DNA of 64,000 nucleotides from an uncultured Poribacteria bacterium (lineage in GTDB: Bacteria; Poribacteria; WGA-4E; WGA-3G), in assembly GCA_951812525.1 (NCBI GenBank), contig OX638316.1:1064506-1128505 (forward strand). Direction: 5' to 3'. Under the pieces are notes generated by a model. It searched no databases, was not told where the DNA came from, and worked only from the letters and a program-made list of their open reading frames with translations. Below are positions 11,180 through 60,979 of the stretch, piece by piece. The translations under genes were made by a program, and so were the position numbers. How positions within the stretch are numbered: position 1 is the first letter of the stretch; each line of letters opens with the position of its first letter.

Positions 11180-11191
11180 TTTTATCTCCTT

Positions 11192-11842: not shown

Positions 11843-11860
11843 TATATTTAACTCCTTTAT

Positions 11861-11953
11861 TAGTTATCAGTTGTGAATTGTCAGTTAAGACGATTTCTGA
11901 TACGTAGAAAACGCTCCTTTAACCGACTACCGATAACTGATAATCGATAACCG
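11861..11953. repeat. Inverted-repeat (MITE/REP-like) element, copy A.
   Basis: Left arm TAGTTATCAGTTGTGAATTGTCAGTT and right arm AACCGACTACCGATAACTGATAATCGATAACCG, related to copies at 20210, 26386 and 38936. Confidence 0.55.
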
Positions 11954-12150: not shown

Positions 12151-12172
12151 TTCAACGGTTCCTTTCCCGGTG

Positions 12173-12766: not shown

Positions 12767-12798
12767 TGTTCATTCTCGTAATCAAGATGCTTCTTATT

Positions 12799-13062
12799 TC
12801 AAGTATTTCGGACAACCCGAAGAACGATCTCAACTACCGCCGCGATAATCAGTAGCAGCCCGATGATTCCCAAAACCGGTGTGCTAATACCCGCGAGAAC
12901 TTTTTCAACGAGCGGATGCGCCTTGCTGCCTGTAATAATTGCCGTTGTTGCGATGATAAACAGCCCTACAAACAGCAGACATAAGATAATACCGAGGCGA
13001 CGATTTCGCTTGCGATGCTCAGGTGCGTTCATACCTGTTCCAAAAGATACAGTAGAAGCCAC
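12799..13062 (-). CDS. Small two-TM membrane protein in the cox operon.
   Basis: 87 aa with two TM helices, tightly packed between ctaB and coxIII. Confidence 0.4.
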   Translation of the reverse strand: MASTVSFGTGMNAPEHRKRNRRLGIILCLLFVGLFIIATTAIITGSKAHPLVEKVLAGISTPVLGIIGLLLIIAAVVEIVLRVVRNT

Positions 13063-13088
13063 TTTGCCCCTACTTTAATTATAAAAAC

Positions 13089-14012: not shown

Positions 14013-14030
14013 TATTCTTTACCTCATACC

Positions 14031-14966
14031 TCATTCTGTAACTAACGCACCACTAGTAGGCGTATCAGCGGGAACCGAGGCATCGGTGAATCTGTAAATT
14101 TTCAGTGTTAACACGAAACTACTAACTAACATAAGCGCACCGACCGCGACGTGTGCGGTTGTAATTGTTACCGTGAGTGCGGCTGCGAACGTTTCCCCAA
14201 GAGCGGTTAGTTTCGCGAAAAACGCGCCTGTACCGAGTATCAACTGCACAGCAAGGAGTCCCAGCAACAAAAGTGCCCCGGACGGAGCGATTCGCTGTGT
14301 GGCATCACTTGCCCCAAGGATACGTCTCGCCAGTAAGAAAATGTGCAGTGCGACCAAAAAAGCAAAAAGAAGATGCGCATCAAGCCTGCTACCAGTATGC
14401 CGCAAAACCGCTCCGAAGATAAGCTGCACATAAATCAGCCCTGTTGTAATCAGGCTTAACCGCCGCAGCTTTTGCGATTCGGCGACCATGGATTCATTCT
14501 TTTCCTCCCACCAATCGCGAGAGGAGAACCAAGCGATCCCACAGAGGAGTGCGAAAAACGCTTGTGCGAGACATGCGTGTACTATCGCAAAGTTGCGATT
14601 AACCTGCGTGACCCGAAGTCCACCGAGAACACCTTGTACAATGACAGCGATGAGTGCAGCGAGCCCGAGCCATTTTAGCCACTTGCGGGAATCTTTCGCC
14701 AATATGAAGACGAAAAGTCCGACTGTCAAGAGCCCAACGAGGGAACCCATGAGCCGATGACTATGCTCATATAGGATACCACCGACCATTTCGGACAGTG
14801 GATAGAGAAACATGTTATATCCGAAAGTTGTTGGCCAATCAGGGACAGCCAATCCAGAGTCAGTGCCTGTAACGATTCCGCCGATGACAATCAACAAGAA
14901 AGTCGCGCCTGCAGTGAGGCGTGCCAGTCTGTGTAACCACGGGCTATACTTGGTGTCGTTCTGCAT
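14031..14966 (-). CDS. ctaA: Heme A synthase (COX15/CtaA).
   Basis: Eight-TM protein with conserved His-containing helices (LYEHSHRLMGS, VLRHTG). Confidence 0.8.
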   Translation of the reverse strand: MQNDTKYSPWLHRLARLTAGATFLLIVIGGIVTGTDSGLAVPDWPTTFGYNMFLYPLSEMVGGILYEHSHRLMGSLVGLLTVGLFVFILAKDSRKWLKWLGLAALIAVIVQGVLGGLRVTQVNRNFAIVHACLAQAFFALLCGIAWFSSRDWWEEKNESMVAESQKLRRLSLITTGLIYVQLIFGAVLRHTGSRLDAHLLFAFLVALHIFLLARRILGASDATQRIAPSGALLLLGLLAVQLILGTGAFFAKLTALGETFAAALTVTITTAHVAVGALMLVSSFVLTLKIYRFTDASVPADTPTSGALVTE

Positions 14967-14991
14967 GCTGCATTTCCACAGGTGTTTAGAA

Positions 14992-15013
14992 AGGCGCGGC
15001 TGAAACCGCGCCT
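14992..15013 (-). terminator. Stem-loop between ctaD and ctaA that contains the GAAACCGCGCCTAC box. It may be an attenuator or an RNA-stability hairpin.
   Basis: AGGCGCGG-CTGAAA-CCGCGCCT. Only a weak T-tract follows on the minus strand. Confidence 0.35.
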
Positions 15014-15020
15014 ACGGTCG

Positions 15021-16877
15021 TTAGTCGCCGCTTGTCGCCGGTGCATGTTCAGGTTGTGCCTGCGGAACCCAATCCTCCTCTTCGCCAGGGACACTATATT
15101 CATACGGACCCCGGTAGACGGTCGGAATTTGACCGAAGTTGCCGTGCGGTACCGGTGTAGGTGCTTCCCACTCCAGCGTATTTACCTGCCACGGATTCTG
15201 TTCGGCGACTTTTCCACGGTACATGCTCCAGAAGAAGTTAAAGACGAGTATCAGTTGTGCAAAACCGAGTGTGAACGCACTCATCGTGATAAAGATGTTC
15301 ATGCCTTCAAACCCCTGTAGGAACTCGTACTGCATCGGGTTGGAGATGCGTCGCATGTGTCCACCTACACCGAGAATATGCATCGGGAAGAAGGTGCAAT
15401 TGAACGCAATAAAAGTCAACCAGAAATGAATCTTGGACAGCGTATCGTTCATGTAGCGTCCATACATTTTCGGAAACCAGAAGACGATACCACCGAAAAT
15501 AGCGAACAGACTTCCACCGAACACAACATAGTGAATATGCGCCACAATGTAGTAGGTATCGTGGATGAAGATGTCAACCGGCGTGTTAGCCATGTAAATG
15601 CCGCTCAACCCACCAATCACGAACATCGAAACAAAAGCGATACCGTGGAGCATTGGAGTTGTGAATCGGATTGAACCGCGAAACATTGTGCCGAGCCAGT
15701 TAAATGTTTTGATGGCTGATGGCACTGCGATGAGCATCGTTGTTGTCATAAACACAGAACCGAGTCCTGGTCGCATGCCGCTCTGGAACATGTGGTGTCC
15801 CCAGACAATCCATCCCAAAAACGCGATGGCAATCATTGCGTAGACCATGGAACGATATCCGAAGATCGGTTTCCGTGAAAAGACAGCAATCAACTCAGAA
15901 GCGATACCCATGCCGGGCAAAATAAGGATATAGACCTCTGGGTGTCCGAAGAACCAGAAGAGGTGCTGCCACAAGAGCGGGTCGCCGCCGCCTTCCGCTG
16001 TTGCTGAAAAAAACGTCGTTCCGGCAAGCCTATCAAAGATGAGCAGGGCAAGTGCAGATGTCAGTACAGGGAAAGCAAGCAACAGGAGAATAGCGACGAT
16101 GAAAAGCGACCAGATAACCAAAGGTAACCGGAAGAACGTCATCCCGGGTGCTCGCATATTGATAACCGTCGTGATATAGTTAATAGATCCGACGAGTGAG
16201 GAAAATCCTTGAATAAGGAGACTAATTGCCCAGAGATTTTGTCCCCAATCCACTCCTGTCCATTGTGGATCAGAAGAGAGGGGGGCATAACCCGTCCATC
16301 CGGCTGCTGCGTGTCCGCCGGGCACAAAGAACCCGATTGCCATGACAATCGCTGCAAGGACTGCGAGCCAAAAAGAGAGCATGTTGAGGATAGGGAACGC
16401 CATATCCCGTGTGCCAATCATCAAGGGAATCAGGAAATTTCCGAAGGTACCTACTAAGATTGGTACAATGACGAAAAATACCATAATAGTGGCATGCATC
16501 GTAAACAGCATGTTGTAAAATGCAGGTTCGATGACACCGTTGGGCATATTGACTTCAAGCCATTCCTCTTTTTCGGATTCATAGATGCGCTCCCACATCC
16601 TATCAGCACCTGTGGCGACCTCGCCTTCATCCATATATTGTTGTGAAGCACCAATGATAGGCAAAGGTCTTTCGGGATAAGCAAGTTGCCATCTAAAGAG
16701 GAGCGCGAGTCCGCCGCCGACGAAGAACATGATCAGCCCATAGATAAGGAACTGCTTGCCGATCGTCTTGTGGTCAAGCGAAAAGATATATTTGCTAATA
16801 AAACTTTCTTCGTGATGATGTGACGTATGTTCGTTATCGTGCATATTTATTGTCCTCCTTGAGCCTATTGAGGCCAT
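15021..16877 (-). CDS. ctaD: Cytochrome c oxidase subunit I (heme-copper oxidase).
   Basis: WFFGHPEVYILILPGMG, and the HxxxY/His-ligand helix pattern across 12 or more TM helices. Confidence 0.95.
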   Translation of the reverse strand: MASIGSRRTINMHDNEHTSHHHEESFISKYIFSLDHKTIGKQFLIYGLIMFFVGGGLALLFRWQLAYPERPLPIIGASQQYMDEGEVATGADRMWERIYESEKEEWLEVNMPNGVIEPAFYNMLFTMHATIMVFFVIVPILVGTFGNFLIPLMIGTRDMAFPILNMLSFWLAVLAAIVMAIGFFVPGGHAAAGWTGYAPLSSDPQWTGVDWGQNLWAISLLIQGFSSLVGSINYITTVINMRAPGMTFFRLPLVIWSLFIVAILLLLAFPVLTSALALLIFDRLAGTTFFSATAEGGGDPLLWQHLFWFFGHPEVYILILPGMGIASELIAVFSRKPIFGYRSMVYAMIAIAFLGWIVWGHHMFQSGMRPGLGSVFMTTTMLIAVPSAIKTFNWLGTMFRGSIRFTTPMLHGIAFVSMFVIGGLSGIYMANTPVDIFIHDTYYIVAHIHYVVFGGSLFAIFGGIVFWFPKMYGRYMNDTLSKIHFWLTFIAFNCTFFPMHILGVGGHMRRISNPMQYEFLQGFEGMNIFITMSAFTLGFAQLILVFNFFWSMYRGKVAEQNPWQVNTLEWEAPTPVPHGNFGQIPTVYRGPYEYSVPGEEEDWVPQAQPEHAPATSGD

Positions 16878-41775: not shown

Positions 41776-42696
41776 TTACGCGAGATCCCAGAGCAGTACA
41801 ATGTCATCATCGCCCCCACTGGCGAGGACACGCCCGTCAGAAGCATAGGCGACATGTCTGACACTGCTCGTATGCCCTGTAAGTACACCTTTAGGTTCTC
41901 CTGTCTCAGCATCCCATAAACGGATGGTATTGTCGTTCCCACCACTCGCGATGGTTTTACCGTCATGCGAGTAAGCGACGCTCCAGACATAACCCGCATG
42001 TCCTGTAAGCGTCGTTATTAAACTTCTTTTGTCCGTACTCCACAACCGAATTGTGCCGTCAACACTGCCACTCACAAGGGTCTCTCCATCAGGCGAATAG
42101 GCAACCGAATTGACAATGTGTGTATGTCCCTCAAGTGTTGCTCTGTGTTTTCCGGTAGCAGCGTCCCATAATAACAGAGTGTCGTCCCCAGTTCCAGCGG
42201 CGAGAGTGTTCCCATTGGGCGAGAATTTAACACATCTGATAGAGTCTGCGTGCCCTTTGAGTGTGTCTTTAGCCTCTCCGGTGGCGGCATCCCACAACCA
42301 CACCGTTCCATCAGTACTCCCACTGGCGACGGTGGCACCGTCTGGGGCATACGTAACACTCCTAACAGCGTCTGTATGTCCTGTAAGCGTCGCTGTCGGA
42401 GATCCACCGATTGCGTCCCATAGAACAACCGTATTGTCTATACTTCCGCTGGCGATCGCACTGCCGTCAGGCGAAAAGGCGACACATCTAACGTACTCCT
42501 TGTGTTCAACAAGGAGGTTAAGTCCAAGTCCGGTGTCTACATCGTAGATCCAGACCCCGATGTCACACGCGACCGCGAGTTGCGTTCCATCGGACGAGAA
42601 TGCTATATCTCCAGTTAGGTTTCCCTGATCAAGACGTGCTTTGACGCCTTCAGGTAGATTCGATTGTGTGTCTGTTTGTGTGTTCATAATTTCCAA
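41776..42696 (-). CDS. WD40-repeat protein, seven repeats.
   Basis: Seven H..V/..SPDG......S.D.T..LWD units, for example GHTDAVRSVTYAPDGATVASGSTDGTVWLWD. Confidence 0.85.
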   Translation of the reverse strand: MEIMNTQTDTQSNLPEGVKARLDQGNLTGDIAFSSDGTQLAVACDIGVWIYDVDTGLGLNLLVEHKEYVRCVAFSPDGSAIASGSIDNTVVLWDAIGGSPTATLTGHTDAVRSVTYAPDGATVASGSTDGTVWLWDAATGEAKDTLKGHADSIRCVKFSPNGNTLAAGTGDDTLLLWDAATGKHRATLEGHTHIVNSVAYSPDGETLVSGSVDGTIRLWSTDKRSLITTLTGHAGYVWSVAYSHDGKTIASGGNDNTIRLWDAETGEPKGVLTGHTSSVRHVAYASDGRVLASGGDDDIVLLWDLA

Positions 42697-42791: not shown

Positions 42792-42882
42792 GTAATTATG
42801 ACGGTTTATCGGAGTATTTCACAGGTATAATTGTAACGGTTTATCGGGGCATTTCATAGGTATAATTATGACGGTTTAAACG
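42792..42882. repeat. Tandem direct repeat, about 35 nt x 2.6 (GTATAATTATGACGGTTTATCGGrGyATTTCAyAG).
   Basis: Direct reading. Each unit contains a TATAAT-like hexamer. Located in the intergenic region upstream of the WD40 gene. Confidence 0.7.
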
Positions 42883-42982: not shown

Positions 42983-43840
42983 CTATTTCTGATTCTTTAA
43001 CTCCCCCCATATTATCGGCAATTTACTACTGGCGGAGACATCTGCGAATTCCGATTCACTTGCCAACCAATTGATAACGTTTTCGGTAAGCTGCTCCAAT
43101 TGGTCAATATCTTTGTTGTTCTTATGATAATTTGGGAGTCTCCAGTTCATGTTGAAGACTTTCCCTTTACCAGCCTCCCAATAGCCGAACGCTGCAATCC
43201 GATCGCCCCAATCGTTAGCAGGTGGTCCCCAAGCATTAGCAAGTGTAATAAAATCTTTCCAAATCTTGTCGTAATAGTCGCCGCTCTTTGGATAGCCTGT
43301 GGAATTAACTTGAATTCTATCGTCTTCCTGAGGGTCTTTCTTGTCAACACTCTTGAGTCCTTCTGTTAATCCTAACGCAATCGTCTCTTTTAGGACAGTA
43401 ATACCGACCGCAATACCGTCTTCTGCGACGGGACCGAATTGGCGTGCCTCCGCTTTTTCAAGTCCGAAGTTAGTTGCGTGACGGATCGCCCACCCCGTTA
43501 AGAGAACAGCTCCTCCGCTTTCGGCGTAGTCTAAAAAAGCATTAATTTCCGGGTCGGACAATTCACCCGGATCGGTATCACCTTCATGCCACCAAATAAC
43601 CCCGAACTGTTTGAATTTGTCGCTCTTCAAATCTGCTTTCGCGAGTAACTCTGTATTGAATGCCTCTTCAGCAAATTCCAACGCCGGTGCCGTGAACGGA
43701 CCATTATCGCCGAGATAGATGAACCCAAGTTCTACCGCAGCATTGCTTATATTTATACCAAAAATGAAAAGAAATGTCAAACAAAATACGATTGGGCGAA
43801 ACTTGTAAGCCAAATCTTGCGATTTAAAAGTCCGTTCCAT
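42983..43840 (-). CDS. Secreted hypothetical protein ending in the conserved tail motif.
   Basis: N-terminal signal/anchor. The C-terminus is ...SEFADVSASSKLPIIWGELKNQK. No other domain was recognised. Confidence 0.5.
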   Translation of the reverse strand: MERTFKSQDLAYKFRPIVFCLTFLFIFGINISNAAVELGFIYLGDNGPFTAPALEFAEEAFNTELLAKADLKSDKFKQFGVIWWHEGDTDPGELSDPEINAFLDYAESGGAVLLTGWAIRHATNFGLEKAEARQFGPVAEDGIAVGITVLKETIALGLTEGLKSVDKKDPQEDDRIQVNSTGYPKSGDYYDKIWKDFITLANAWGPPANDWGDRIAAFGYWEAGKGKVFNMNWRLPNYHKNNKDIDQLEQLTENVINWLASESEFADVSASSKLPIIWGELKNQK

Positions 43841-49852: not shown

Positions 49853-52800
49853 ATGGGTTCGGCACGGAATATAAATTTTCTTATCATAGCGTTTCTGTTT
49901 GGTATCTCGATCTTGCTTAACGGCTGTGTGAAGATGGAAGCGACCCGGAAGGCGGATTGGGAGACGCATTTCACAGACCTGCACTTCGTCGATCAAAAAC
50001 GAGGATGGATTGTCGGGGAACAGGGATTAATCATCCACACGGCAGATGGCGGAAAAACGTGGAAGCAACAGGAAGTTGACACAACAGGAGTTGGATATCG
50101 GATGCCCGATGCTTCCTTAGATTTCAAAGCCGTCTATTTTACGAACACGAACTACGGATGGGCAGTTGGCGATGAAGGATTAGTTGCGACAACTGACGAC
50201 GGTGGTAAACATTGGACGCTACAACGGAGCGGCACCTCCGCCATGCTCCTTGATGTGTATTTTGCCAATTCAAAAGAGGGCTGGATTGTTGGAGAAGATT
50301 CCGATGTGCTCTATACTAAGAATGGCGGAAAAGAGTGGAAACGTTACGAGTACGTCAGCGAGTTTATGCTCAACGGGGTCTGGTTCGTTGATAATTCAAG
50401 AGGGTGGGTCGTTGGAACCCACGATAGGATCCTCCATACCCAAACAGGTGGTGAGTCGTGGCGAGAGCAAAGCAACCGCTTTGAAGGTGAACGCGATCGG
50501 ATGATTAATGACAATAAACAAATCTTCTTCGTTAGCGATAATGAAGGTTGGATTGTTGGCAGTGACGGTTCTATTTTTCATACAACCACAGGTGGTATAA
50601 ACTGGGAACGTCAAGATAGCCGTATTCCTCTGATTAATGGACACGTCCGAGATACCATTAATAGTATACATTTCACGGATGAAAACTACGGAGTCGCTGT
50701 GGCAGATGTCGGTTTTATCACCCGTACCCAAAATGGTGGCGACAACTGGCAATTAATGGAGAGCGGTACTGAAAACAATTTGACCGGCGTTCAGTTTACC
50801 ACACCGCAAGAGGCATGGGCGGTTGGATGGTACGGTACGATCCTGCACACAACAGACGCTGGCGCGACATGGGAAATGACAAGCGGTACGACTGCAAACG
50901 ACTTACAGAATGTCCAGTTTACTAATGCGAATCGCGCAATCGCAGTCGGTAGGCGCGGCACTATGGCAATGAGTAACGATGGAGGTCAGACCTGGAACGA
51001 AATTGAGACGGATATCTGGGACGGCATCTGGAACATCTATTTTGCTACCGACAAACATGGCTGGGCAGTCGGTGAACGCGGACTCATTGTCCATACCAAC
51101 GATGGTGGTTTAAATTGGGAACGTCAGCGTAGCAATTCGGCATTTACGCTCCGTTCCGTTCACTTTATTAGCCCTCAAGTCGGTTGGGCTGTCGGGGACA
51201 TGGGAAGCATTCTACACACAATTGATGGCGGACAAACGTGGCTTCCGCAAACCGCTGTTGGGGACTTCCTTTCTCTCATGCTACACGGGGTATTTTTCCT
51301 CGATGACAAGAAGGGCTGGGCTATCGGATGGCCCGGTGTTTGCCTTGCGACTGAAGATGGTGGTTTGAGTTGGACCCAGCAGACAACAGGGACTTTTAAT
51401 GAACTCTACGCCGTTTACTTCACTGACGAAAACACAGGATGGATTGTCGGACAGTTTGGCGAAATTTTACATACAAAGAACGGCGGCGAAAGATGGAGCT
51501 TCCAGCGTAGCGGCACACAAGCAAATCTCAATAAACTCTATTTCGCTGGTGCTCAGCACGGATTAATCGTCGGTGATAGCGGTGTGATGCTCACGACCGT
51601 TAACGGCGGGACAAAATGGGAACTCCAAGAGAGCGGTACCGACAACGATCTGTACGGGTTAGCACTCTCCCCCGACGGCGTTGTAGCAGTGGGTAAGGGT
51701 GGCATTGCAATGCGGTACTCTGTTGAAGAAGCGGAATTGCCAGCGAAATTACCACCAGTCGCCGAAGAGGTGGAGATTGTCACTGCTGAAGAGGACATTG
51801 AAGTTGAACCTATTGTTTACCACTGGGACATTCTCCGCCAAGCAACTTGGAGAACTAACTTTGCCGATACTCATTTTATAGATGCGCAAAACGGATGGGC
51901 GGTCGGTTCCGGTGGTGCGATTGCCCATACCACAGATGGTGGGAAAACGTGGCACCCACAACATAGTGGTGTCAGTGAAGATCTGCGAGACGTGGAATTC
52001 GTTGACGAAAAACATGGGCGAATCCTTGGTGCCAGTATCTTACTTCAGACCGAAGACAGCGGTGAAACGTGGCAGCCAATTCTTCAAGCAACTAAGCAGA
52101 ACCTCCCGCGCGTTAGCACAATGCACTTCCTAAACGCGGAAGAAGGATGGCTCGGTGCTACGATTGGGCAAATCTTACACACCACTGACGGTGGGAAAAC
52201 GTGGAAGATCCAGAAAACTGGAACCACCATGGCAAATATCACCGATATTCACTTTATCAATAGTCAGGTCGGATGGGCGGTCACACCCCAACGTCGAGAT
52301 GGTGGATTTATTCTCCACACCGTTGATGGTGGTGATTATTGGAAAATTCAGGCAAAGACAAACCAAGCCGGTGTTGCTGTTCACTTTGCTGACGAAAACC
52401 GCGGTTGGGTAATTCTCGGTAACGGTAGCTCCTTACTAAGTGAAGATGGCGGCGAAACGTGGAGATTGCAAACTACAAGCCAAAGCACAAGCCGTTTACG
52501 AAATATCACCTTCCACTCTCATACAGCGGCATGGGCACTCGGTGGCGGCGGCACTTATGTCACCAATGATCAGGGGCTAACTTGGAAGTCGGTTCCGGTC
52601 GATACGGGAGATGAGGGCGGCGATAATATGCTCGCCATGGGAGAATTTAATCCGTTTTTACCCGAAGGATTTGAATTGGAATCCGAAGAATCCGAAGAGC
52701 CAGAAGAAGAGGTTTCGGACGGACCGACGCTAACATACGACGAAACGCCGGAGGAAATTCAAAATAGACTTCGGGCAGAGTGGCAGCGTCCAGGACGCCT

Positions 52801-53929
52801 TGCACCTGAGGGTGAACTCCCACCTAACGCCGAACGTGCCACATCACCTGAATCAACACAGCAACAAGCACCGCCACCTGAACCTGAACGAGGGTTCAGA
52901 CGACGCGGCGGTCGCCGCATCGCCAGTGTATACTTCCTCGATACAGAACTCGCATGGGCAGTTGGCAGTGGAGGTAGTATCTACCACACTACAGATGGTG
53001 GAGAAACATGGGAACGTCAACTCGGTGAAGCGCAACGCAACGATTTCCGAGAAGTCCTTTTTTACGATGACAAAATCGGTTGGATAGCTGGGGATAGCGG
53101 TGTCTTATTAGAAACCCAAGACGGTGGACAGACATGGGAATCGCTCTCAAGCCAAACGCGTCAACGTCTTATCGGTATACACTTTGCCAGCCTCGAACCG
53201 AAATGGGGTTGGACAATGCAACGCGATGGCACCGTTCTCTATACCACAGACGGCGCAATCTGGACAGCGGGCGACACTCCCGAACAACCGCCATTCATGG
53301 AAGGCGATTCTCCCGGAACATTCTCGCTGAACGATGTTGATTTTGGAAAGTTCTCTGAAGGCTGGGCTGTCGGTAGAATGGGATACATCATCCATAACAA
53401 AGATGGTGGTCCGACGTGGACACCACAACGAACCACTGCAAACGACACACTCACGGATGTGGATATGTCATTCGCTCCCCTCGGTTGGGCTGTCGGACAG
53501 GCTGGCGTGACGCAACGAACCATCAACGGCGGTGAGTATTGGCGAATGCACGAGACTAAGTCTAATTACGATCTTAATGCTGTTTCATTTATCGCCAAAC
53601 GGACAGGATGGGCGGCTGGTGAAGCCGGTATTATCCTAAAGAGTACCGACGGCGGCTTTAACTGGGAACCTAAGTTGACCGGCGTTAACAAAACGCTCCA
53701 CGGTATCATCGCACTCTCTGAAAAGGAGATTTATGCGGTCGGCGAAGAGGGCATCATTATTCGCTCAACCGACGGCGGTGAAACGTGGGAACAGGAACAC
53801 ACCGATATTGATAACAATCTCTATGTTATTACGCGTTCCAAGGACGGTAAAGCGTTATGGGTTGTTGGGCAGTGGGGTGTCGTCCTCCGCCGGAAATTAG
53901 AGACGCAAGAACGGATGTCAATGCGCTAA
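49853..53929 (+). CDS. Giant (1358 aa) lipoprotein built from about 27 BNR/Asp-box (Ycf48-like) beta-propeller blades in three blocks. The blocks are separated by acidic/Pro-rich linkers.
   Basis: Lipobox LLNGC. Repeated (T/S)xDGGxTW motifs about every 44 aa: GGKTWKQQ, GGKHWTLQ, GGESWREQ, GGINWERQ, GGQTWNEI, GGLNWERQ, GGERWSFQ, GGTKWELQ, GGKTWHPQ, GGETWRLQ, GGETWERQ, GGPTWTPQ, GGFNWEPK, GGETWEQE and others. Linker EESEEPEEEVSDGP...PPPEPERGFRRRGGRR. Confidence 0.8.
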   Translation: MGSARNINFLIIAFLFGISILLNGCVKMEATRKADWETHFTDLHFVDQKRGWIVGEQGLIIHTADGGKTWKQQEVDTTGVGYRMPDASLDFKAVYFTNTNYGWAVGDEGLVATTDDGGKHWTLQRSGTSAMLLDVYFANSKEGWIVGEDSDVLYTKNGGKEWKRYEYVSEFMLNGVWFVDNSRGWVVGTHDRILHTQTGGESWREQSNRFEGERDRMINDNKQIFFVSDNEGWIVGSDGSIFHTTTGGINWERQDSRIPLINGHVRDTINSIHFTDENYGVAVADVGFITRTQNGGDNWQLMESGTENNLTGVQFTTPQEAWAVGWYGTILHTTDAGATWEMTSGTTANDLQNVQFTNANRAIAVGRRGTMAMSNDGGQTWNEIETDIWDGIWNIYFATDKHGWAVGERGLIVHTNDGGLNWERQRSNSAFTLRSVHFISPQVGWAVGDMGSILHTIDGGQTWLPQTAVGDFLSLMLHGVFFLDDKKGWAIGWPGVCLATEDGGLSWTQQTTGTFNELYAVYFTDENTGWIVGQFGEILHTKNGGERWSFQRSGTQANLNKLYFAGAQHGLIVGDSGVMLTTVNGGTKWELQESGTDNDLYGLALSPDGVVAVGKGGIAMRYSVEEAELPAKLPPVAEEVEIVTAEEDIEVEPIVYHWDILRQATWRTNFADTHFIDAQNGWAVGSGGAIAHTTDGGKTWHPQHSGVSEDLRDVEFVDEKHGRILGASILLQTEDSGETWQPILQATKQNLPRVSTMHFLNAEEGWLGATIGQILHTTDGGKTWKIQKTGTTMANITDIHFINSQVGWAVTPQRRDGGFILHTVDGGDYWKIQAKTNQAGVAVHFADENRGWVILGNGSSLLSEDGGETWRLQTTSQSTSRLRNITFHSHTAAWALGGGGTYVTNDQGLTWKSVPVDTGDEGGDNMLAMGEFNPFLPEGFELESEESEEPEEEVSDGPTLTYDETPEEIQNRLRAEWQRPGRLAPEGELPPNAERATSPESTQQQAPPPEPERGFRRRGGRRIASVYFLDTELAWAVGSGGSIYHTTDGGETWERQLGEAQRNDFREVLFYDDKIGWIAGDSGVLLETQDGGQTWESLSSQTRQRLIGIHFASLEPKWGWTMQRDGTVLYTTDGAIWTAGDTPEQPPFMEGDSPGTFSLNDVDFGKFSEGWAVGRMGYIIHNKDGGPTWTPQRTTANDTLTDVDMSFAPLGWAVGQAGVTQRTINGGEYWRMHETKSNYDLNAVSFIAKRTGWAAGEAGIILKSTDGGFNWEPKLTGVNKTLHGIIALSEKEIYAVGEEGIIIRSTDGGETWEQEHTDIDNNLYVITRSKDGKALWVVGQWGVVLRRKLETQERMSMR

Positions 53930-54091: not shown

Positions 54092-55072
54092 ATGAAATCA
54101 AAATCCAGCAAAGCACTGCTTATTTCGGTTCTACTGCACGCCGGTGTTGGTGTGCTCGGACTCTTCTACTGGTTCGGTACGAACCCACAACGAAATACTG
54201 ACAGTATTAATGCCCTGCTCATCACGGAAGAAAAACCGAAAGTCAGGCGCGTCCCACGTCGCAAACGCGTACAGGTCATGCAGAAAAGGACCCGCGATAC
54301 CAACCAACCGCGTTTGAAAATCCTCACAAGCAATCAGCCTGCTACCAACCGTGGGGTCGTCTCCGCATCGGAACCGGCACCCTTCCAAGCATTCGACAGT
54401 AACGACTTAAGCGAACCCGTCGGACCGACTTCAACAACTGTCGAATTTGACGACACACCACGTGTGCAAAGGGTTATCGAACGCCCTTTCAAAAAACAAC
54501 CGAAAAACAGAGAACGTCCCAAGAGTAGACTAGTAAAGTTCATTGAAGCACAAGACGGACCGCAGCGTATTGTCTACTGCGTCGATCTCTCTACGAGCAT
54601 GCAAAATCTCCCACCGCACAAACTCAAACGGGTCATAGACCTTATGCGAGATTCACTCACCTTCCTTGAAACACACGATAGTTTCAATATCGTGGCGTTC
54701 AGCACGGAGTTAATCGTTTACCAAGAAGGTTTTGTCCCTGTAACTGAGCAGACAGTTGCTGCATCATCAAATTACCTCCGCAATATCAAATCCCAAATCC
54801 ACACAAAAGGGACCGACCACGATATGCTAAGTGCCTTGACAGAGACTGCGAAGATAGCACCTACCATTGTTGTACTTTTTAGCGATGGCATTCCTACCAC
54901 GATTGCCGGAACAGATCTTAACCTCGTCGGCGAACATGCTACAGGCAACGGACGTATTTTCGCTATGGGGACCGGAATGGCACCTAATTTCCCCGGGGCA
55001 GTGATGCTGAAGCAACTCGCCACCGTCAGCAAAGGCGACCTTTGGCTTGTTGATAGAGTACGCAGAAGATAA
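54092..55072 (+). CDS. Membrane-anchored von Willebrand factor A (VWA) domain protein.
   Basis: N-terminal TM helix, basic/Pro-rich linker, then a VWA domain with the MIDAS motif DLSTS (IVYCVDLSTSM). Confidence 0.7.
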   Translation: MKSKSSKALLISVLLHAGVGVLGLFYWFGTNPQRNTDSINALLITEEKPKVRRVPRRKRVQVMQKRTRDTNQPRLKILTSNQPATNRGVVSASEPAPFQAFDSNDLSEPVGPTSTTVEFDDTPRVQRVIERPFKKQPKNRERPKSRLVKFIEAQDGPQRIVYCVDLSTSMQNLPPHKLKRVIDLMRDSLTFLETHDSFNIVAFSTELIVYQEGFVPVTEQTVAASSNYLRNIKSQIHTKGTDHDMLSALTETAKIAPTIVVLFSDGIPTTIAGTDLNLVGEHATGNGRIFAMGTGMAPNFPGAVMLKQLATVSKGDLWLVDRVRRR

Positions 55073-55084
55073 GAGGTAAATTGC

Positions 55085-56869
55085 ATGCAGCAAGCCGTGC
55101 TCACACGTGCGGAAGAGATTGCCAAAGGTCTCTATCCACATCAGATAGAAGGGATAGCCTTTCTGCTGGGTCGGCGGCGTGCACTCCTCGCTGACGATAT
55201 GGGGCTCGGTAAAACCCGACAATCCGTTATTGCAATGGTTGAAGCAGAAGCGGAAGGTCCCTATCTCGTGATTTGCCCTGCTTCTGTCAAACGGAACTGG
55301 GCGCGTGAAATCCAACTCGTTCTCCCCGCAGCTGAACCTGCTGTCGTAGGACCCGCACCTCTCCCCGCAATCGAATTCCAAGACTGGATTATCATTAACT
55401 ATGAGATTCTTGGTAAACACTTGGAAGGACTCCTGGCGTTTGACTGGAAAGGTATTGTGTTTGACGAAGCACACTACTTGAAAAATCACCAGAGCCAACG
55501 CAGTCGGAATGCCGCCAAACTTGTGAAGTCAATCCAGCATGAACCGATAGTCCACGCGCTAACGGGTACACCGATGACCAACCGTCCCCGCGACCTTTTC
55601 CCGCTCTTGCGACTCATGAACCACCCGCTCGGTAAAAGTTTCCTCAGTTTCGCCAAACGCTATTGTGATGCCTATCAAGGTGAATACGGATTAGTGGCAG
55701 ACGGGGCAAGCAATATTGAGGAATTAACCGTTCAACTTCACGGTGTGATGTTGCGGCGCACAAAAAATGAGGTGTTAGACCTCCCACCTAAAGTGCGAAC
55801 ATGGTTGGATGTAGAACTTCATCCCGTGGCGATCCAGCATTTTAATAATGCCGTCCGAGAGTTCCTAACTAAATTTGATGCCCCTGAATCTATTGATATG
55901 ATCCAAGATAGCCCGGAAAACCCGGAGCGACGGCAAGCGGTGGGGAGGCTTACCACCGCGCGGCGAAAACTCGCTTTCGCTAAGTGCCGCCACACCATCA
56001 AATTTGTCGAAAATGCTCTGGAACAGGGTGAAAAGGTTATTCTCTTCACGACCTTCCTCAATACATTGGAGCGTTTTCACAAACATTTCGGCGATCAGGC
56101 TGTCGTTGTCTCCGGCGAGGTGCCAGTAGAAGAACGGCAAAACCGCGTTGATAGGTTTCAAAATGACGAAAACGTAAAACTTTTTATTGCTAATATGCAC
56201 GTCGCCGGGGTCGGAATCAATTTAACCGCCGGGCGACAGATCGTTTTCAACGATCTGGATTGGGTGCCAGCGAATCACTGGCAAGCCGAGGATCGTGCCT
56301 ACCGTATCGGACAGACAGGAACTGTTAATGTCACCTATATGATAGCGCGCGGGACAGTAGACGAATTCGTCAAGACTGTATTGGAAACGAAAGCTGCACT
56401 GATGGACGCTCTCGTTGAAGGCACCGTCTTAATAGCGGGTGAAGACGGCGAGGTACAAGCCGACGTTCTTAGCGAACTCAAGCGGATGATGAATGCGCTC
56501 TCTGTGCATACCGACGAAGTGGAAACATCGCAGCTGCTTGACGTGCTCCAAAAAGCAAGCAATACTTATCTGGATGAAAACGCTGCACACCTCCGCGAAG
56601 CCACTCGTGCGCAGCTACGTCCATATTCCGAAGAAGCCATCCGCACGCTCGCGCAAGTCCTCGCCGGACCAGAGCGGAGCATTTACCAGATGGAGAGTTC
56701 ATCACAAAAAGGCAAGTTTTATACGCTGGAGGTTGTCGGTGTCGATGTAACGTGCGATTGTCCGGGCTTCACACATCGCGGTAGCTGCCGACACGTCCGT
56801 CCATTGAAATCTGCGCTTGTCGCAGAGAAACCTTTGCCAAAAGGCTATAAAAAAGTTTCAGCCGATTAA
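55085..56869 (+). CDS. SNF2-family helicase with a C-terminal SWIM zinc finger.
   Basis: Motif I DDMGLGKT, motif II DEAH (VFDEAHYLKN), helicase-C motifs (LTAGRQIVFNDLDWVPANHWQAEDRAYRIGQ). SWIM CDCPGF...CRHV. Starts 12 nt after the VWA gene, consistent with one operon. Confidence 0.85.
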   Translation: MQQAVLTRAEEIAKGLYPHQIEGIAFLLGRRRALLADDMGLGKTRQSVIAMVEAEAEGPYLVICPASVKRNWAREIQLVLPAAEPAVVGPAPLPAIEFQDWIIINYEILGKHLEGLLAFDWKGIVFDEAHYLKNHQSQRSRNAAKLVKSIQHEPIVHALTGTPMTNRPRDLFPLLRLMNHPLGKSFLSFAKRYCDAYQGEYGLVADGASNIEELTVQLHGVMLRRTKNEVLDLPPKVRTWLDVELHPVAIQHFNNAVREFLTKFDAPESIDMIQDSPENPERRQAVGRLTTARRKLAFAKCRHTIKFVENALEQGEKVILFTTFLNTLERFHKHFGDQAVVVSGEVPVEERQNRVDRFQNDENVKLFIANMHVAGVGINLTAGRQIVFNDLDWVPANHWQAEDRAYRIGQTGTVNVTYMIARGTVDEFVKTVLETKAALMDALVEGTVLIAGEDGEVQADVLSELKRMMNALSVHTDEVETSQLLDVLQKASNTYLDENAAHLREATRAQLRPYSEEAIRTLAQVLAGPERSIYQMESSSQKGKFYTLEVVGVDVTCDCPGFTHRGSCRHVRPLKSALVAEKPLPKGYKKVSAD

Positions 56870-56905
56870 GGGGTTTGTGTCCCTCACTAGCACATACGAA
56901 CGCGC

Positions 56906-59900
56906 CTACTCCTCTGATGGGAGGGCATACACACCCCACCGGACTCTCACAATTTCACCTGCGTCTACAAGGCGAGAAAGTTCATTTTTTATCGCTTTTG
57001 GATGTCCATCAATCACTTCAACCAATTCCCTTGTTTTCTTCTTACCATCGGAAGCCAGCATAGAGAGGATTTGCTCGCGGAAAGGGACTCGTAAGGGTTT
57101 TCCACCCCTGAGCTTCTTTAACATGCGGTTTGCCTGCCTTGAGGAACATCCCAAGATACGCTCCACTTCTTCTCTGCTGGATTCAGCGGTTAGATTGGCA
57201 CGTTCTTCCTCAAAACGCTCGCGTGTGGCTATCGCCTCAGGAAGGTTGTCCAAACTACCAGCAACCTCAAAATCTTCCCAGTCAAACAAGAATGTTTCAG
57301 GTCTGTCAGTAATGTCGGGCAGTGTCAAACCGGAGATTAAAACAATTCTTTTGTTCGTCCAGCGGTTTAACCCAGCACGTAAGACCGTTCGTGTAAGTGC
57401 GCGAACGATCCCGTGTTCATAAATTCCCTGAATTCGCTGGTCCTTATAGCACTGGGTCTCTACATCCTCCTCATAAGAGAGAGGCTTTTTGTCATTTCCA
57501 AACAAAATCTGTGCTTGTCTCCAAACGAGGGTTGGTGACCGCTGCGGCGTGCCAACTATCCAAATGACTTCTGCTTCTTTAAGAGCAGGACGTCGTCCCC
57601 CGATATTGCTGAAATTGGTCACGAAACAGACGTTCTGTTTTTGCGCGATATCGTCTAACCGTGCAGCAACTGACCTATAGGTGATAATCGCATGCTTAAC
57701 ATCCGGATCCCTCTCAATCTCTGCACGAATACTGGCAAAAAAGCGTTGTCCTATCTTAGACATGCCGATAACATCCCAGTTGTCGTTGTAGCCCATAATT
57801 GTTCGTCGGGGATAGATCCCAGTACGAATCTGAAAGACCTGGTTCCCTATGCCCCACGCACTTGGTTCGGTACGGCTCACCTGAATTTCTTCATTTGGAA
57901 ATGCCCTACGGAGATGCTGCTCAGAGAGGGTCGCCGACATTAGCAAAAGGCGTTTGACACTCGAATGCAGAACGGGCGGCACCCAGAACCTCAGGACCTT
58001 ACCACTCCACCGTATTGGTGCGTCGGCATCTCGCGTGTAATGTTCAAAGAAACGCTTGATTTGATGCCAAAACGTCCAGTTTGGATCCTGACAGACCGTC
58101 GGGAATGCCTGAATGCTCTCTACGGTCCCTGTATCCAAGATGCCCAATTCGATAGCTTGTGTCATTGGCATCAGGATTTTCAGGTCCTCGTTAGGCGCAA
58201 AGGAATAGAACGGAAAGATAGGAAGTCCCTTTGCTGCGAGCGCATTTGCAGCATCTTTGTCTAAAGGAATGTAAGCGGAGATATTACCTTCAAATTCAAT
58301 GGTAAAACGTGCTAATTTCTCTCCGGTATCAGAATCAGTATAGCCTCGTTCTACCACCTTACCTTGTACGTTGATGTGACTCATCTGCTTGACGATTTCT
58401 TCTTCTCGCCATTCAAAGACCCGTACCACCGTGCGGATGCGTTTGACAGCATCGGCATGGGGTTTGTCCTCGACTTCTACCGCATGCAACAAGGCTTTGG
58501 CAAAATTTCCTAAGGCACACCCTTGCCAGTTCATACTCCATTCTTCTAATAATTTTTTTGATAGTTTACATTCAAGAAACAACTTATTAAGTTGTGCTCT
58601 GATGATGATGCAAAGCCTGTCTGGCTCATCCACCTCTTTGAGGATTTTTTCTACCAATCCTACGTACTGCGGATTGAAAAACATATTGGGGAATGCCAAT
58701 ATCTGCGCCTTAGCATGTTGTAACGCCTCGGTTTGTGATAGATACCCTCGCTCCTGGCACTCCATATAGACAGGGCATTGCGGACAGATGCTTTCGCTTG
58801 GATTTCCACCCTTTTTCTCGAGTGCATCGCATCGCTCTGGATCCTCACAGACATTGCCGCGTTGAAAAGGGGTTGCCATGCGCACAGCAATCGGTATTTC
58901 CTTCGCCTCTTCCCATCGATACATCCGAGGTTTCCAACGCGCAAACGACGGTACGTTTTGTTTTTCATAGGACGCCTCCGCTTCTTCGGCTAACCTGATA
59001 ACTGGGACATTTAAGCAGACCGCGCCGCCGGTATGGAGATATGATACAGTTTCACGCCTGCCAGCGTCCGTCTTGGTAGTAAGTCCGAGAATACGAGCAG
59101 CCCCATCGAAAATGCTTTGTGTCTGAATAGTGCTCTCTTCGGGTGTTTCATAATCCCCTTCCGTGTATTCCGGTTTGTGGAGTACGGAGGGCGGACGCTT
59201 TATCGCCAATGGACTCAGCTTCCCTTCCCGCACTGCGAGCACTTTATCAGATCCAGACAGCTCAACAGCGGTAGTCAGTGAGACAATACCGGTATCGTCC
59301 CAGATCTCTGTTATTGGTGTGTCTCTCGTAGGCAGCCCAGCGTCAGAGGTAGATGCACGGACCCATACAGTGCCATCACTCTCCCAGAACGATACATGTT
59401 CATCGCTAATAGCACCATCAGGGGGCATCCAATAGTGTAAATCGTTCTCTTGTCGGACATAAGAAAAGCCGCGTTGTACAAACGCAGCCTTTGCGAGATC
59501 GAGATTATTTGAACCGAGGGTGGAAGGTGTAACAGGGATAACTTGTGGAAGGTCTCCTAATTCCTGTTCGTCAGGAGGGGCAGGTTCGTGAAGTTCTGCA
59601 CGGAGGGCATCAATAGGGGCAAAGAGCACCTCTTTAGCAACCACAGGCGGATCTAACAAACTCCCAAGCAGAATCTCGTAGCGCGCATCCCACCGACTGT
59701 ATCCTTCTTCCGCCAAGATTTCGAGATACACGTCTCGTTGATCCGGGTTTTCTGGAGTCGGTGCGTGCTTATAGATATACAGTCTTGCATCCTCAGTATT
59801 TGGATGGAGGTAATCTGGAACTCTGCAAGAGAATCGCAGTCCACCGGACTTTGATAGCGTTAGCAGCGGATTATCTATGGCGTTGACAAGTGCGTCAATA

Positions 59901-60310
59901 CAGGCATAAACAGCATCAGGAGCGGTAGAAATGGCTTCGTATGTAAAATCAATATCATGCCACCGTGCACCGTCGCATTCGGAAGGAATACCGGTATACA
60001 CCTGAATTCCCCACGACCCATGCCATCGTCTCATTCCCCAATCCTGTACCCCTTGACGGTTTAAGAACCGTTCGCCTCCAAAATCCCTCGGACCATGGTC
60101 ATTTTCAGGCGCGTGTCCTATCGGCATAAAGGAGATATCTGCCTGCTCCAAGTCAGCAAGCAGCACTGGGCATCTCTGTGCGCAATAGACTGTGAGATGA
60201 TAAGGATAACCTTTATTATAGAGTGCAGGTGTTACAACTGTCTTCCGCTGTCGAAGCGGGTTTTCGTGCCGTTCGTGGCAGCGTTCAATAATATCTTTTA
60301 AGGGATCCAT
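56906..60310 (-). CDS. 1134-aa protein with an N-terminal Prim-Pol (bifunctional primase/polymerase)-like domain, a Cys-rich zinc-binding region and a C-terminal winged-HTH. Putative replication-initiation protein of a mobile element or replicon.
   Basis: Prim-Pol-like motifs HDIDF (catalytic DxD-like) and LSKSGGLRFSCRV (the sGGxHxyF motif). Cys cluster CEDPERCD...CPQCPVYMEC. C-terminal wHTH LVEVIDGHPKAIKNELSRLVDAGEIVRV. No Walker A was found. Confidence 0.5.
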   Translation of the reverse strand: MDPLKDIIERCHERHENPLRQRKTVVTPALYNKGYPYHLTVYCAQRCPVLLADLEQADISFMPIGHAPENDHGPRDFGGERFLNRQGVQDWGMRRWHGSWGIQVYTGIPSECDGARWHDIDFTYEAISTAPDAVYACIDALVNAIDNPLLTLSKSGGLRFSCRVPDYLHPNTEDARLYIYKHAPTPENPDQRDVYLEILAEEGYSRWDARYEILLGSLLDPPVVAKEVLFAPIDALRAELHEPAPPDEQELGDLPQVIPVTPSTLGSNNLDLAKAAFVQRGFSYVRQENDLHYWMPPDGAISDEHVSFWESDGTVWVRASTSDAGLPTRDTPITEIWDDTGIVSLTTAVELSGSDKVLAVREGKLSPLAIKRPPSVLHKPEYTEGDYETPEESTIQTQSIFDGAARILGLTTKTDAGRRETVSYLHTGGAVCLNVPVIRLAEEAEASYEKQNVPSFARWKPRMYRWEEAKEIPIAVRMATPFQRGNVCEDPERCDALEKKGGNPSESICPQCPVYMECQERGYLSQTEALQHAKAQILAFPNMFFNPQYVGLVEKILKEVDEPDRLCIIIRAQLNKLFLECKLSKKLLEEWSMNWQGCALGNFAKALLHAVEVEDKPHADAVKRIRTVVRVFEWREEEIVKQMSHINVQGKVVERGYTDSDTGEKLARFTIEFEGNISAYIPLDKDAANALAAKGLPIFPFYSFAPNEDLKILMPMTQAIELGILDTGTVESIQAFPTVCQDPNWTFWHQIKRFFEHYTRDADAPIRWSGKVLRFWVPPVLHSSVKRLLLMSATLSEQHLRRAFPNEEIQVSRTEPSAWGIGNQVFQIRTGIYPRRTIMGYNDNWDVIGMSKIGQRFFASIRAEIERDPDVKHAIITYRSVAARLDDIAQKQNVCFVTNFSNIGGRRPALKEAEVIWIVGTPQRSPTLVWRQAQILFGNDKKPLSYEEDVETQCYKDQRIQGIYEHGIVRALTRTVLRAGLNRWTNKRIVLISGLTLPDITDRPETFLFDWEDFEVAGSLDNLPEAIATRERFEEERANLTAESSREEVERILGCSSRQANRMLKKLRGGKPLRVPFREQILSMLASDGKKKTRELVEVIDGHPKAIKNELSRLVDAGEIVRVRWGVYALPSEE

Positions 60311-60979
60311 ATCTATAAAAAGCGAATATAAAATCTCGGTTCTGTCAAATCAGATTTCCGGATTAATATAACATATTAGAATAAAATCAATAGTAAATAC
60401 TATCACAAATCTAAATTCAAATCAAATTCTTAATTTCCATAAAGTCAAGAATCGCAAGACTTGAGAGCATCAACCGTATCAAGACGTTATTATTATATTA
60501 TTAAAATCAAAAAATAATTGACCCGATATGACTTTATGAAAATTTAACCGTAAGTTATCTCATAAATAATGTGAACATAATGTAGAGATTACCTAAATTC
60601 ACTACAATGTAACGACACTTGCGATATTCAGATACACACTAACTATACAATTATTGCACATTATCATACAATTTTTGCATTGTCAATTCAATTTTTTTAG
60701 ATATTTATACAAATTTTGCATATTATCATACAATTTTTGCGAATCTTTCAGGACGCAATTGCGTTGATTCTGCCACTTTTATGGATAGAGTTAGTACGAC
60801 TATTCTTTTTTCTGATACCCGGCTGCTGCGCAGTTAGGACAGAAATTTTTCTTTGACTTCCATTTCTCAAAACATAGCACAATTACGTGTTCAACATGCC
60901 ACGCATCCGGATTTTCTGCTTGACAGCCATCAAAAAATTTGCTAAAATCGACATAATTTAATACAAGGAGGCGTGACAA
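60311..60979. other. 670-bp AT-rich intergenic region with direct repeats and divergent promoters.
   Basis: By eye it is far more AT-rich than the ~50% GC window. ATTATCATACAATTTTTGC occurs twice, at about 60663 and about 60725. Confidence 0.6.
60920..60948 (+). promoter_or_regulatory. Near-consensus sigma70 promoter for the second LamG gene.
   Basis: TTGACA (60920-60925), 17-nt spacer, TAAAAT (60943-60948). The RBS GGAGG sits before the ATG at 60980. Confidence 0.6.

Follow-up and report, generated by a model that had tools for sequence, protein, structure and literature searches.

Prim-Pol/helicase-like proteins of Candidatus Poribacteria: a giant protein, its paralog family and its AT-rich upstream region

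Fusions of a primase-polymerase (Prim-Pol) domain to a helicase are known as the replicases of plasmids and viruses. The families of the PrimPol-PV1 supergroup have been described by Kazlauskas et al. 2018 (PMC5862659), and in the E. coli protein IEE, a fusion of an archaeo-eukaryotic primase (AEP) domain to a superfamily 2 (SF2) helicase that originates from a mobile element, the helicase domain stabilises DNA binding and does not unwind (PMC9943667). Here we analyse a gene for a protein of 1134 residues, hereafter the giant protein, in a stretch of 64,000 nucleotides (the window) from an uncultured Poribacteria bacterium (assembly GCA_951812525.1, contig OX638316.1, positions 1,064,506 to 1,128,505 of the forward strand). 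The gene is preceded by a long AT-rich spacer and converges with two genes encoding a VWA protein and an SNF2/SWIM helicase (Table 1). An initial annotation, made from the letters alone, had seen in this group either a defence island or a replication module belonging to a plasmid or to an integrated element; the locus is neither. The model we propose, to which we give a probability of about 0.55, is that the giant protein is a domesticated, ATPase-dead DNA-binding protein which derives from a mobile-element primase-helicase and is separate from the VWA-SNF2 pair. In what follows, comparison loci are designated by L numbers and relatives by P numbers.

Domains of the giant protein and the state of its motifs

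The giant protein begins with a Prim-Pol fold, continues with a small linker domain and an XPD-like SF2 core that contains a four-cysteine insert, and ends in a winged helix. Two models were used: an AlphaFold2 model of the full 1134 residues, with a predicted local distance difference test (pLDDT) score of 69.9 and good from residue 530 onward, and a second model of residues 1-350 (m3b1a0afa315f), built from a more diverse alignment and reaching a pLDDT of 77.8. Compared by Foldseek with BFVD, the Prim-Pol domain finds phage bifunctional primase/polymerases at a best E of 2.7e-10 and a probability of 1.0, and almost all of the 21 matches at E<=1e-3 obtained with the model of residues 1-350 are primase/polymerases. 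In the PDB its top 11 matches are all AEPs (NrS-1, LigD-Pol, MPXV E5, CAPP), but with E>=0.023. At the sequence level, Pfam, NCBIfam and PHROG give nothing on the N-terminal 381 residues even at E<=10, with no PF09250, PriCT or D5_N, and Pfam, NCBIfam, PHROGs, PADLOC and a phmmer search of the PDB detect nothing on the giant protein beyond a borderline winged helix.

The nearest structures to the helicase-like core in the PDB are XPD proteins (9p55, 1.2e-8; 3crv, 1.7e-8; 4a15, 6e-8), followed by UvrB, the XPD matches having target-normalised template-modelling (TM) scores of 0.38-0.46. The phmmer search of the giant protein against the PDB returned no match, so there is no sequence-level membership of XPD or DinG, and a profile of the family finds in the PDB only weak matches of the Walker A region to DEAH and UvrB helicases (E>=0.013). 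The cysteine cluster, which lies after the Walker A position and before that of Walker B, comprises C488, C494, C509, C512 and C518. Four of these residues, C488, C509, C512 and C518, do not vary in alignment A2, relatives at 22-30% identity included; among 92 tabulated family sequences the exceptions are four shorter, degenerate members without the region and five divergent proteins of 1220-1280 residues which have the first cysteine only. The insert is a probable [4Fe-4S] site, to judge from the conservation and position of its cysteines, with the C-x20-C-x2-C-x5-C spacing of Wbl/AddB/Cas4-type clusters. A WhiB domain was considered for its WhiB-like CxxCPVxxxC signature and rejected: five of the ten family segments gave Pfam WhiB matches, which stayed below threshold (E 0.05-0.4). 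Two helical modules close the protein, the last element being the winged helix at residues 1077-1131.

The initial annotation had proposed the Prim-Pol-like N-terminus, which the BFVD matches bear out at the level of the fold. The motifs it quoted (HDIDF, SGGLRF) and its Cys-cluster are present, and its C-terminal winged helix-turn-helix agrees with the AbiEi_4 match (24.6 bits for a cut-off of 25) and with a modelled H-H-H-beta-beta arrangement. It had overlooked the SF2 core and the destruction of the ATPase motifs.

The catalytic motifs of the window protein are best read against those of its relatives on mobile elements, presented in the next section. Motif I of the Prim-Pol domain contains the dyad D119-I-D121, in which position 121 is D, E, N or H among orthologs and paralogs; the mobile-element relatives have as their invariant pair the second Asp together with a Glu (D113 and E115 of P0143), and at the position of this Glu the window protein has Thr and the chromosomal copies all have Lys or Thr. 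In motif II (SGGLR) the two glycines are invariant and the expected His is an Arg family-wide, the mobile-element copies included, while E197, the acidic residue of motif III (YLEIL), is near-invariant. In the mobile-element relatives, invariant columns of alignment A3 place in the linker a motif like a Cys/His zinc finger (C302...C328xxC331); the window protein does not have it, and it is gone throughout the chromosomal clade. In the helicase core, Walker A is degenerate (TKTDAGRRE at 412-420, with TETDTGDHE and TNITAGSRE in orthologs and TGxGK in the relatives), as are motif II, or Walker B, which has no acidic residue (IIIRAQLNKLF at 568-578 for IDEAKAHELF in the relatives), and motif VI (LRAGLNR at 977-983, within TRTVLRAGLNR, for QAVGRARLNR); motif III is kept (MSATL at 791-795). 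The ortholog group of the window protein as a whole has lost the zinc finger and motif VI as well as the lysine of Walker A and the two acidic residues of Walker B. Because Walker A, motif II and motif VI are lost, ATP hydrolysis by the window protein is very unlikely. Some paralog groups of the family retain Walker A and the DE pair (for example EKGAGKSY and IIDEAEAHELF).

All domains of the window copy are under purifying selection, and it is not decaying. The ratio of nonsynonymous to synonymous substitution rates (dN/dS) of the giant gene is 0.19 in the comparison with L083 (83% identical, dS 0.46) and 0.18 in that with L001 (73%, dS 0.91); taken domain by domain it ranges from 0.12 to 0.24 and is lowest, at 0.12, in the Prim-Pol domain.

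Mobile-element relatives and the Poribacteria paralog family

HMMER, run exhaustively over 1.84 billion cluster representatives, yielded 508 relatives, including full-length ones at 25-35% identity. Most of these distant relatives retain TGxGK, IDEAKAHELF or DD variants of it, MSATL and QAVGRARLNR in the helicase core; their Prim-Pol domain has an invariant D-x-E and KSGGxR and is followed by the Cys/His finger (C...CxxC); P0143, P0222 and P0271 are such motif-intact relatives. Three relatives were placed on contigs, and all three contigs look like mobile elements of a plasmid-like or phage-like kind. The first, of 89.7 kb and with a name ending in "_c", carries ParA with a ribbon-helix-helix (RHH) protein, several DNA methylases, a homologue of Sipho_Gp157 and runs of small co-oriented open reading frames (ORFs); the second carries integrases, ParA with RHH and a pair formed by a methyltransferase and ResIII; the third carries Rep3, an integrase and methylases. 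On these grounds the active form looks like an undescribed Prim-Pol/Fe-S-helicase/winged-helix replicase of plasmid-like elements. No match to an active relative was found by tblastn among PLSDB plasmids and INPHARED phages, or by a pattern scan of IMG/VR. Our guess, from sample accessions in the ERZ250... range of several Poribacteria assemblies, is that the contigs come from sponge microbiomes; one relative, P0276, was binned with a Poribacteria metagenome-assembled genome (MAG). The link to mobile elements drawn in the initial annotation stands for the ancestry of the family and falls for the locus itself, which is chromosomal and syntenic.

Repeats accompany these elements. On L078 (13444-13520 and 13849-13925) and L079 (15469-15513 and 15647-15675), arrays with a period of 8 nt lie just upstream of the ParA and RHH genes, those of L078 flanking a small ORF, and are probable partition (centromere-like) sites. 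On L080, two direct repeats of 42 nt stand directly upstream of the primase-helicase gene (3362-3449).

The family itself counts more than 1300 homologues of about 1130 residues at 55-99% identity, essentially none of them named, and no description of it was found in the literature searched. Our genomic survey covered GTDB with one genome per species, and 77 loci were kept from 126 matching stretches. All of these loci belong to Candidatus Poribacteria, plus two MAGs without a taxon name, and close members of the family are restricted to this phylum. Up to six separate family loci occur on one chromosome, and 80 full-length copies form about 30 groups at 70% identity, with a mean pairwise identity of 58%. 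Each paralog group occupies its own gene neighbourhood, which is conserved between species and includes such genes as those for ribosomal protein L13, SerA, HemN, an ArsA-type ATPase, a di-haem oxidoreductase and a molybdenum hydroxylase. The chromosomal paralogs are old and vertically inherited, and not recent insertions.

Several loci show particular arrangements. L028 and L029 (~180-13400) contain a head-to-tail array of four family members, two of about 780 and two of about 1150 residues. In L017, L018, L026 and L071 (~10000-16500 in each), a motif-intact paralog of about 1136 residues, with Walker A and DE, is followed in tandem by an ortholog of the window protein, a form of 976 residues (P0121) without the Cys-cluster region; these pairs hint at active and inactive partners.

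One orthologous subgroup (L003, L005-L010, L013, L014, L019 and L020) has a conserved in-frame TGA (for example L005:11366-11368), which aligns with W459 of the window protein ("ER*KPRMYLWEQ" for "ARWKPRMYRWEE"). Both halves around it, of about 455 and 668 residues, are intact in the 11 loci, which come from different genome assemblies, and the codon changes just past the TGA are mostly synonymous, including in loci that have no start codon after it. TGA is a normal stop in those loci, where it ends 23 of 149 ORFs of at least 200 residues. These features suggest a programmed read-through or recoding, which would give a Prim-Pol-only product and a full-length product. A selenocysteine insertion sequence behind the conserved UGA was unsupported: the sole recurrent hairpin (ACCUG...CAGGU) corresponds to the codons of YLWEQV, similar to the family consensus HLWEQV, and, judged at the level of the encoded residues, is unlikely to be specific.

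The AT-rich spacer and the VWA-SNF2 pair

About 600 nt of the spacer form the upstream region of the giant gene and about 60 nt the promoter of the LamG gene which follows on the other side. Most of it is assigned to the giant gene: the insertions found in two related loci, a TnpB gene in L085 and MauG in L086, fall between this part and the LamG gene and leave the proximal ~430 nt intact. The L085 insertion (3480-4598) is an IS605 OrfB/TnpB (Cas12f-like) gene standing between the LamG gene and the conserved upstream region of the giant gene. In an alignment of five orthologs, covering 520 nt of upstream and 30 nt of coding sequence, 191 of 614 columns are invariant, although the synonymous sites of the giant gene are half saturated (dS 0.46-0.9). 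The conserved parts comprise the repeat units, several further blocks and a plausible -35/-10 pair some 90-115 nt before the ATG; this candidate promoter scores below the threshold of the promoter scan, and its assignment is inferred. The promoter block of the LamG gene is conserved in L017, L018, L026 and L083. Across the family, upstream spacers have a median length of 461 nt and a GC content of 0.34, against 175 nt and 0.40 for the other spacers of the same loci. We read the spacer as a conserved control region that would bind protein.

The direct repeats noticed in the initial annotation are real and conserved: Tandem Repeats Finder (TRF) gives a period of 21, and the array is kept in the orthologous spacers of L001, L083, L084, L085 and L086. 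A repeat search of the window describes the spacer array as a 35-nt unit at 91% identity (family D1). On the strand of the gene the core reads GCAAAAATTGTAT(G)ATAAT, with units spaced by 21, 41 and 21 nt, and the core CAAAAATTGTAT has 6 matches in the window where 0.58 are expected, a number reached in none of 100 shuffles. The units look like A-tracts combined with extended -10 elements; they could serve as operators, or as promoters in tandem. Two further copies of the core spaced by 21 nt (ACACAAAAATTGT on the minus strand) are found at 2224-2266 of the window, about 150-190 nt upstream of a minus-strand ORF (986-2074, 362 residues, no Pfam match), and the motif may mark a small regulon and not belong to the giant gene alone. 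In L028 a variant of the motif stands in the spacer before the second copy of the tandem array.

Other interpretations of the spacer were rejected. A structured RNA or leader has no Rfam match, a minimum free energy z-score of -1.17 and an alifold energy of -13 kcal/mol with a covariation term of -1.08. A chromosomal origin disagrees with the lack of any DnaA box in the spacer and a window-wide count of DnaA boxes at chance level. Iteron-like arrays upstream of all paralogs were ruled out by 11-mer counts at the level of shuffles.

The VWA protein has an N-terminal hydrophobic transmembrane helix (residues 8-28) and an intact DxSxS metal-ion-dependent adhesion site (DLSTS, 165-169) in a domain matched by Pfam VWA_3 (5e-8) and also by VWA_2 and VWA. 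Its neighbour matches SNF2-rel_dom (1.8e-34) and Helicase_C (3.6e-15), has intact motifs (GLGKT at 40, DEAH at 127 and QAEDRAYRIGQ, of the form QxxxRxxRxGQ, at 400) and bears towards its C-terminus a SWIM-type CxCx8CxH, CDCPGFTHRGSCRH, at residues 557-570 (nt 56753-56794). Pfam SWIM gives no match to it at E<=0.01, the sole support being phrog_29279 ("zinc-finger domain protein") at E=0.01. Each of the 120 best homologues listed shows 74-100% identity and a similar length, and the SNF2/SWIM gene is probably a conserved, single-copy gene of Poribacteria.

As the initial annotation had it, the VWA and SNF2/SWIM genes behave as a conserved adjacent pair, and they probably form one operon of their own. 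This pair is independent of the giant gene, which it accompanies in just 7-8 of 78 loci. In the complete genomes L081 and L082 the two genes are adjacent, 38 nt apart, with no giant gene nearby, amid genes for GatC/GatA, CtpB, aldehyde dehydrogenase, RecX, AlaRS, RecJ and RelA. A pair made of a HaeII-type restriction enzyme and a C5 DNA methylase adjoins the VWA gene at L083:12538-14576, L085:10461-12499 and L082:4935-6969, and in L083 and L085 it takes the place of the SNF2 gene, which is missing. On the other side of the VWA gene, the window encodes at 49853-53929 a protein of 1358 residues with many BNR/Ycf48-like (PSII_BNR) and sortilin-Vps10-like beta-propeller repeats, which is conserved beside the VWA gene in related genomes. 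Elsewhere in the window, a 35-nt tandem repeat of 2.5 copies (42793-42878) lies between a WD40-repeat gene (41776-42696) and an ORF at 42983-43840, and several tandem repeats of 9, 15, 18 and 27 nt occupy its start (270-524).

Table 1. Positions of the described features, in window coordinates
Feature	Coordinates	Strand	Description or basis
VWA gene	54092-55072	+	ORF of 326 aa
SNF2/SWIM gene	55085-56869	+	594 aa; starts 12 nt past the VWA gene
Giant gene	56906-60310	-	ORF of 1134 aa; convergent with the SNF2 gene, 36 nt separating the stop codons
Prim-Pol (AEP)-fold domain, residues ~1-245	59576-60310	-	Motifs WHDIDF 117-122, SKSGGLRF 153-160, YLEIL 195-199
Small beta-rich linker domain, residues ~262-340	59291-59527	-	Secondary structure of the models
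SF2 helicase-like core, residues ~400-1040, nearest XPD/Rad3	57191-59113	-	Foldseek against the PDB
Four-cysteine cluster C488-x20-C509-x2-C512-x5-C518	58757-58849	-	Putative [4Fe-4S] site between the Walker A and B positions
C-terminal winged helix-turn-helix, residues ~1077-1131	56918-57082	-	Pfam AbiEi_4 2.7e-5; PADLOC AbiEi 1e-4
AT-rich divergent intergenic spacer	60311-60979	.	669 nt, GC 0.30 vs ~0.49 for the window
Direct repeat array, 4-5 copies, 21-nt period	60645-60740	-	TRF 4.6 copies; lies 335-430 nt before the ATG
Candidate sigma-70-type promoter of the giant gene	60397-60425	-	TTGATT-17-TAGTAT; TTGACG-17-TAATAT in orthologs; conserved block
Promoter-like site of the LamG-domain gene at 60980	60920-60948	+	TTGACA-17-TAAAAT, TG extension, 11/12 consensus matches

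Proposed model, alternatives and known systems

In the model we propose, a replicative primase-helicase of a mobile element would have been domesticated once, as a chromosomal family. The window copy would not hydrolyse ATP and hence would not be a helicase, and it would probably not prime either. It would most likely be a sequence-specific DNA binder in which the winged helix supplies the specificity, the Fe-S helicase shell and the Prim-Pol shell serving as a scaffold that clamps DNA or binds a partner. The expression of the gene would proceed from its unusually long, conserved AT-rich control region, where the phased 21-nt repeats are the foremost candidates for binding sites, whether of the giant protein, in the style of Rep-iteron autoregulation, or of another regulator. 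That the winged helix binds the repeats of its own gene is an attractive inference by analogy with those systems.

Several points weigh against this model. The protein is known from sequences and models only. Its likeness to XPD is a fold match at a TM score of about 0.45 and not a sequence-family match, and the Fe-S assignment relies on the conservation and position of the cysteines in a part of the model where the pLDDT is below 50. The loss of catalysis is deduced from motifs only; D119, D121 and E197 remain, and the protein may have a residual or altered Prim-Pol activity. Furthermore, with Walker A and DE present in several paralog groups, the family is not wholly inactive, and the window copy might have an active partner. 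As for the repeats, 11-mer counts upstream of paralogs are not above those of shuffles outside the ortholog group of the window protein, and the occurrence of the motif twice (2224-2256) before an unrelated gene fits a separate regulator at least as well.

We advance tentatively a wider scenario, in which a single capture of a plasmid or phage primase-helicase by Poribacteria would have given rise to dozens of chromosomal paralogs, a new class of Fe-S "pseudo-replicase" DNA-binding proteins, some ATPase-intact and some dead, possibly joined in mixed assemblies that regulate genes or block the replication of related mobile elements, one subfamily using UGA read-through.

An anti-mobile-element role proper, in which the paralogs would serve as decoys, as sensors or as dominant-negative subunits against the replication of plasmids or phages with active relatives, as an immunity by replicon incompatibility, seems to us unlikely. 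The active relatives do lie on contigs resembling mobile elements, whose shared sample origin with Poribacteria is a guess from the ERZ250... accessions, and P0276 was binned with a Poribacteria MAG. The large expansion of the paralogs and the varied loss of their catalytic motifs would also fit such a role, as would the copies located by restriction-modification genes: cluster c39 in L035, L037, L040 and L045, which is of the N6-methylase type as judged from sequence, and the HaeII-type pair in L083 and L085. On the other hand, the PADLOC models match nothing beyond the winged helix, the neighbours are mostly housekeeping and not defence genes, and the paralogs are old, syntenic and under ordinary purifying selection (dN/dS ~0.18), with no fast diversification.

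Could the giant protein still be an enzyme, a primase-polymerase or translocase of the repair type comparable to E. coli IEE and working with non-canonical residues? We hold this for improbable. The precedent exists, IEE showing that an AEP-SF2 fusion can act in repair or end joining with a non-unwinding helicase domain (PMC9943667), and the retention of D119xD121, E197 and the invariant SGGxR in the most constrained domain of the protein (dN/dS 0.12) speaks in its favour. However, Walker A has neither its Gly nor its Lys (TDAGR for TGxGK), motif II has no acidic residue (IIIRAQ), D121 varies between D, E, N and H, the invariant Glu of the mobile-element relatives is Thr or Lys, and the zinc finger commonly needed by primases is missing.

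The reading of the initial annotation, in which the VWA, SNF2/SWIM and giant genes and the repeat-bearing spacer are together a defence island, or serve a plasmid or an integrated element as its replication module and origin, is largely refuted. Its coordinates, strands and gene spacing match the ORF map exactly, and it could draw on the Prim-Pol fold, the winged helix, the phased direct repeats by the gene and the mobile-element ancestry of the family. All 12 ORFs between 44 and 64 kb nevertheless have homologues in L001, a Poribacteria chromosome of 5.1 Mb, 11 of them in the same order, and the gene order of the locus recurs in L002, L004, L017, L018, L026, L071, L083, L085 and L086. The eight ORFs scanned between 48 and 62.7 kb include no integrase, the locus has no tRNA or att-like feature, and the GC content is even across the window except in the spacer, which itself has no DnaA box; the ATPase motifs are destroyed. 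The PADLOC and NCBIfam models for ZorD of Zorya, DpdE of Dpd, DrmD of DISARM and BrxH of BREX match the generic helicase core only, far below their cut-offs (105.9 against 1500 bits for ZorD), and no partner gene of these four systems is present among the neighbours. Nor do the three genes make one module: the pair exists elsewhere without the giant gene, and giant paralogs occur without the pair in more than 60 of 78 loci. The grouping is an accident of synteny, and the convergence of the pair with the giant gene is lineage-specific. Two observations had been named in advance as contrary to that reading, the absence of a primase-polymerase fold and a syntenic core position of the genes; the second was made, and the fold is present.

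A decaying relic, a pseudogene in the making, is disfavoured: catalytic motifs are lost and some genomes have the 976-residue ortholog without the Cys-cluster region (P0121; L017, L018, L026, L071), but the frame of 1134 codons is intact, dN/dS is ~0.18 in every domain over dS values up to 0.9, the upstream region is conserved and many sequence clusters contain full-length orthologs.

In conclusion, three features of the family appear to be undescribed. The first is the union of a Prim-Pol domain, a winged helix and an SF2 helicase that is XPD-like and contains four cysteines, a combination with no Pfam or NCBIfam model and no match among annotated plasmids, phages or IMG/VR. The second is the wholesale domestication of such a protein into at least 30 vertically inherited paralog groups in one phylum of sponge symbionts, and the third is the existence of many paralogs whose active sites are dismantled and which are yet under purifying selection. 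The family offers a tractable case of the passage of a replication enzyme from a selfish element to a host protein with a non-catalytic role, and adds a large unexplained gene family to the genomes of Poribacteria, which are not yet culturable. The signal worth following is the giant-protein family with its conserved control region, and not the grouping of three genes.

Among known systems, Rep-iteron autoregulation resembles the upstream region in the phasing of the 21-nt repeats (about two helical turns), the AT-richness and the adjoining gene for a Rep-derived protein with a winged helix; it differs in that the setting in the window is chromosomal and syntenic, has no DnaA boxes and shares its motif with an unrelated gene, binding being only predicted. 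IEE, compared by description, is a protein of 786 residues which has all seven helicase motifs and the catalytic Asp, and for which no Fe-S cluster or winged helix is reported. With the 4Fe-4S SF2 helicases XPD, Rad3 and DinG the family shares four cysteines inserted in the first RecA-like domain, after Walker A and ahead of Walker B, and its relatives carry DEAxAH, SAT and QAxGRxR; its core is instead fused to a Prim-Pol domain and a winged helix, and the window copy has lost the catalytic motifs. The Prim-Pol-helicase Rep proteins of mobile elements, such as ORF904 of pRN1 with its Prim-Pol domain, superfamily 3 (SF3) helicase and winged helix, have the same order of an N-terminal Prim-Pol domain, a helicase and a C-terminal winged helix. 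In the pRN1 ORF904-type and PrimPol-PV1 proteins this winged helix is thought to recognise the origin, and a Zn-binding module is found there as in the mobile-element-borne relatives of the family. The window copy departs from these Rep proteins by being chromosomal, vertically inherited and devoid of ATPase motifs, and the family as a whole departs from the PrimPol-PV1 supergroup by having Arg in place of the motif II His and by its helicase, which is XPD-like, of SF2 and equipped with a four-cysteine insert, where the supergroup has SF3, D5, RepA or MCM.

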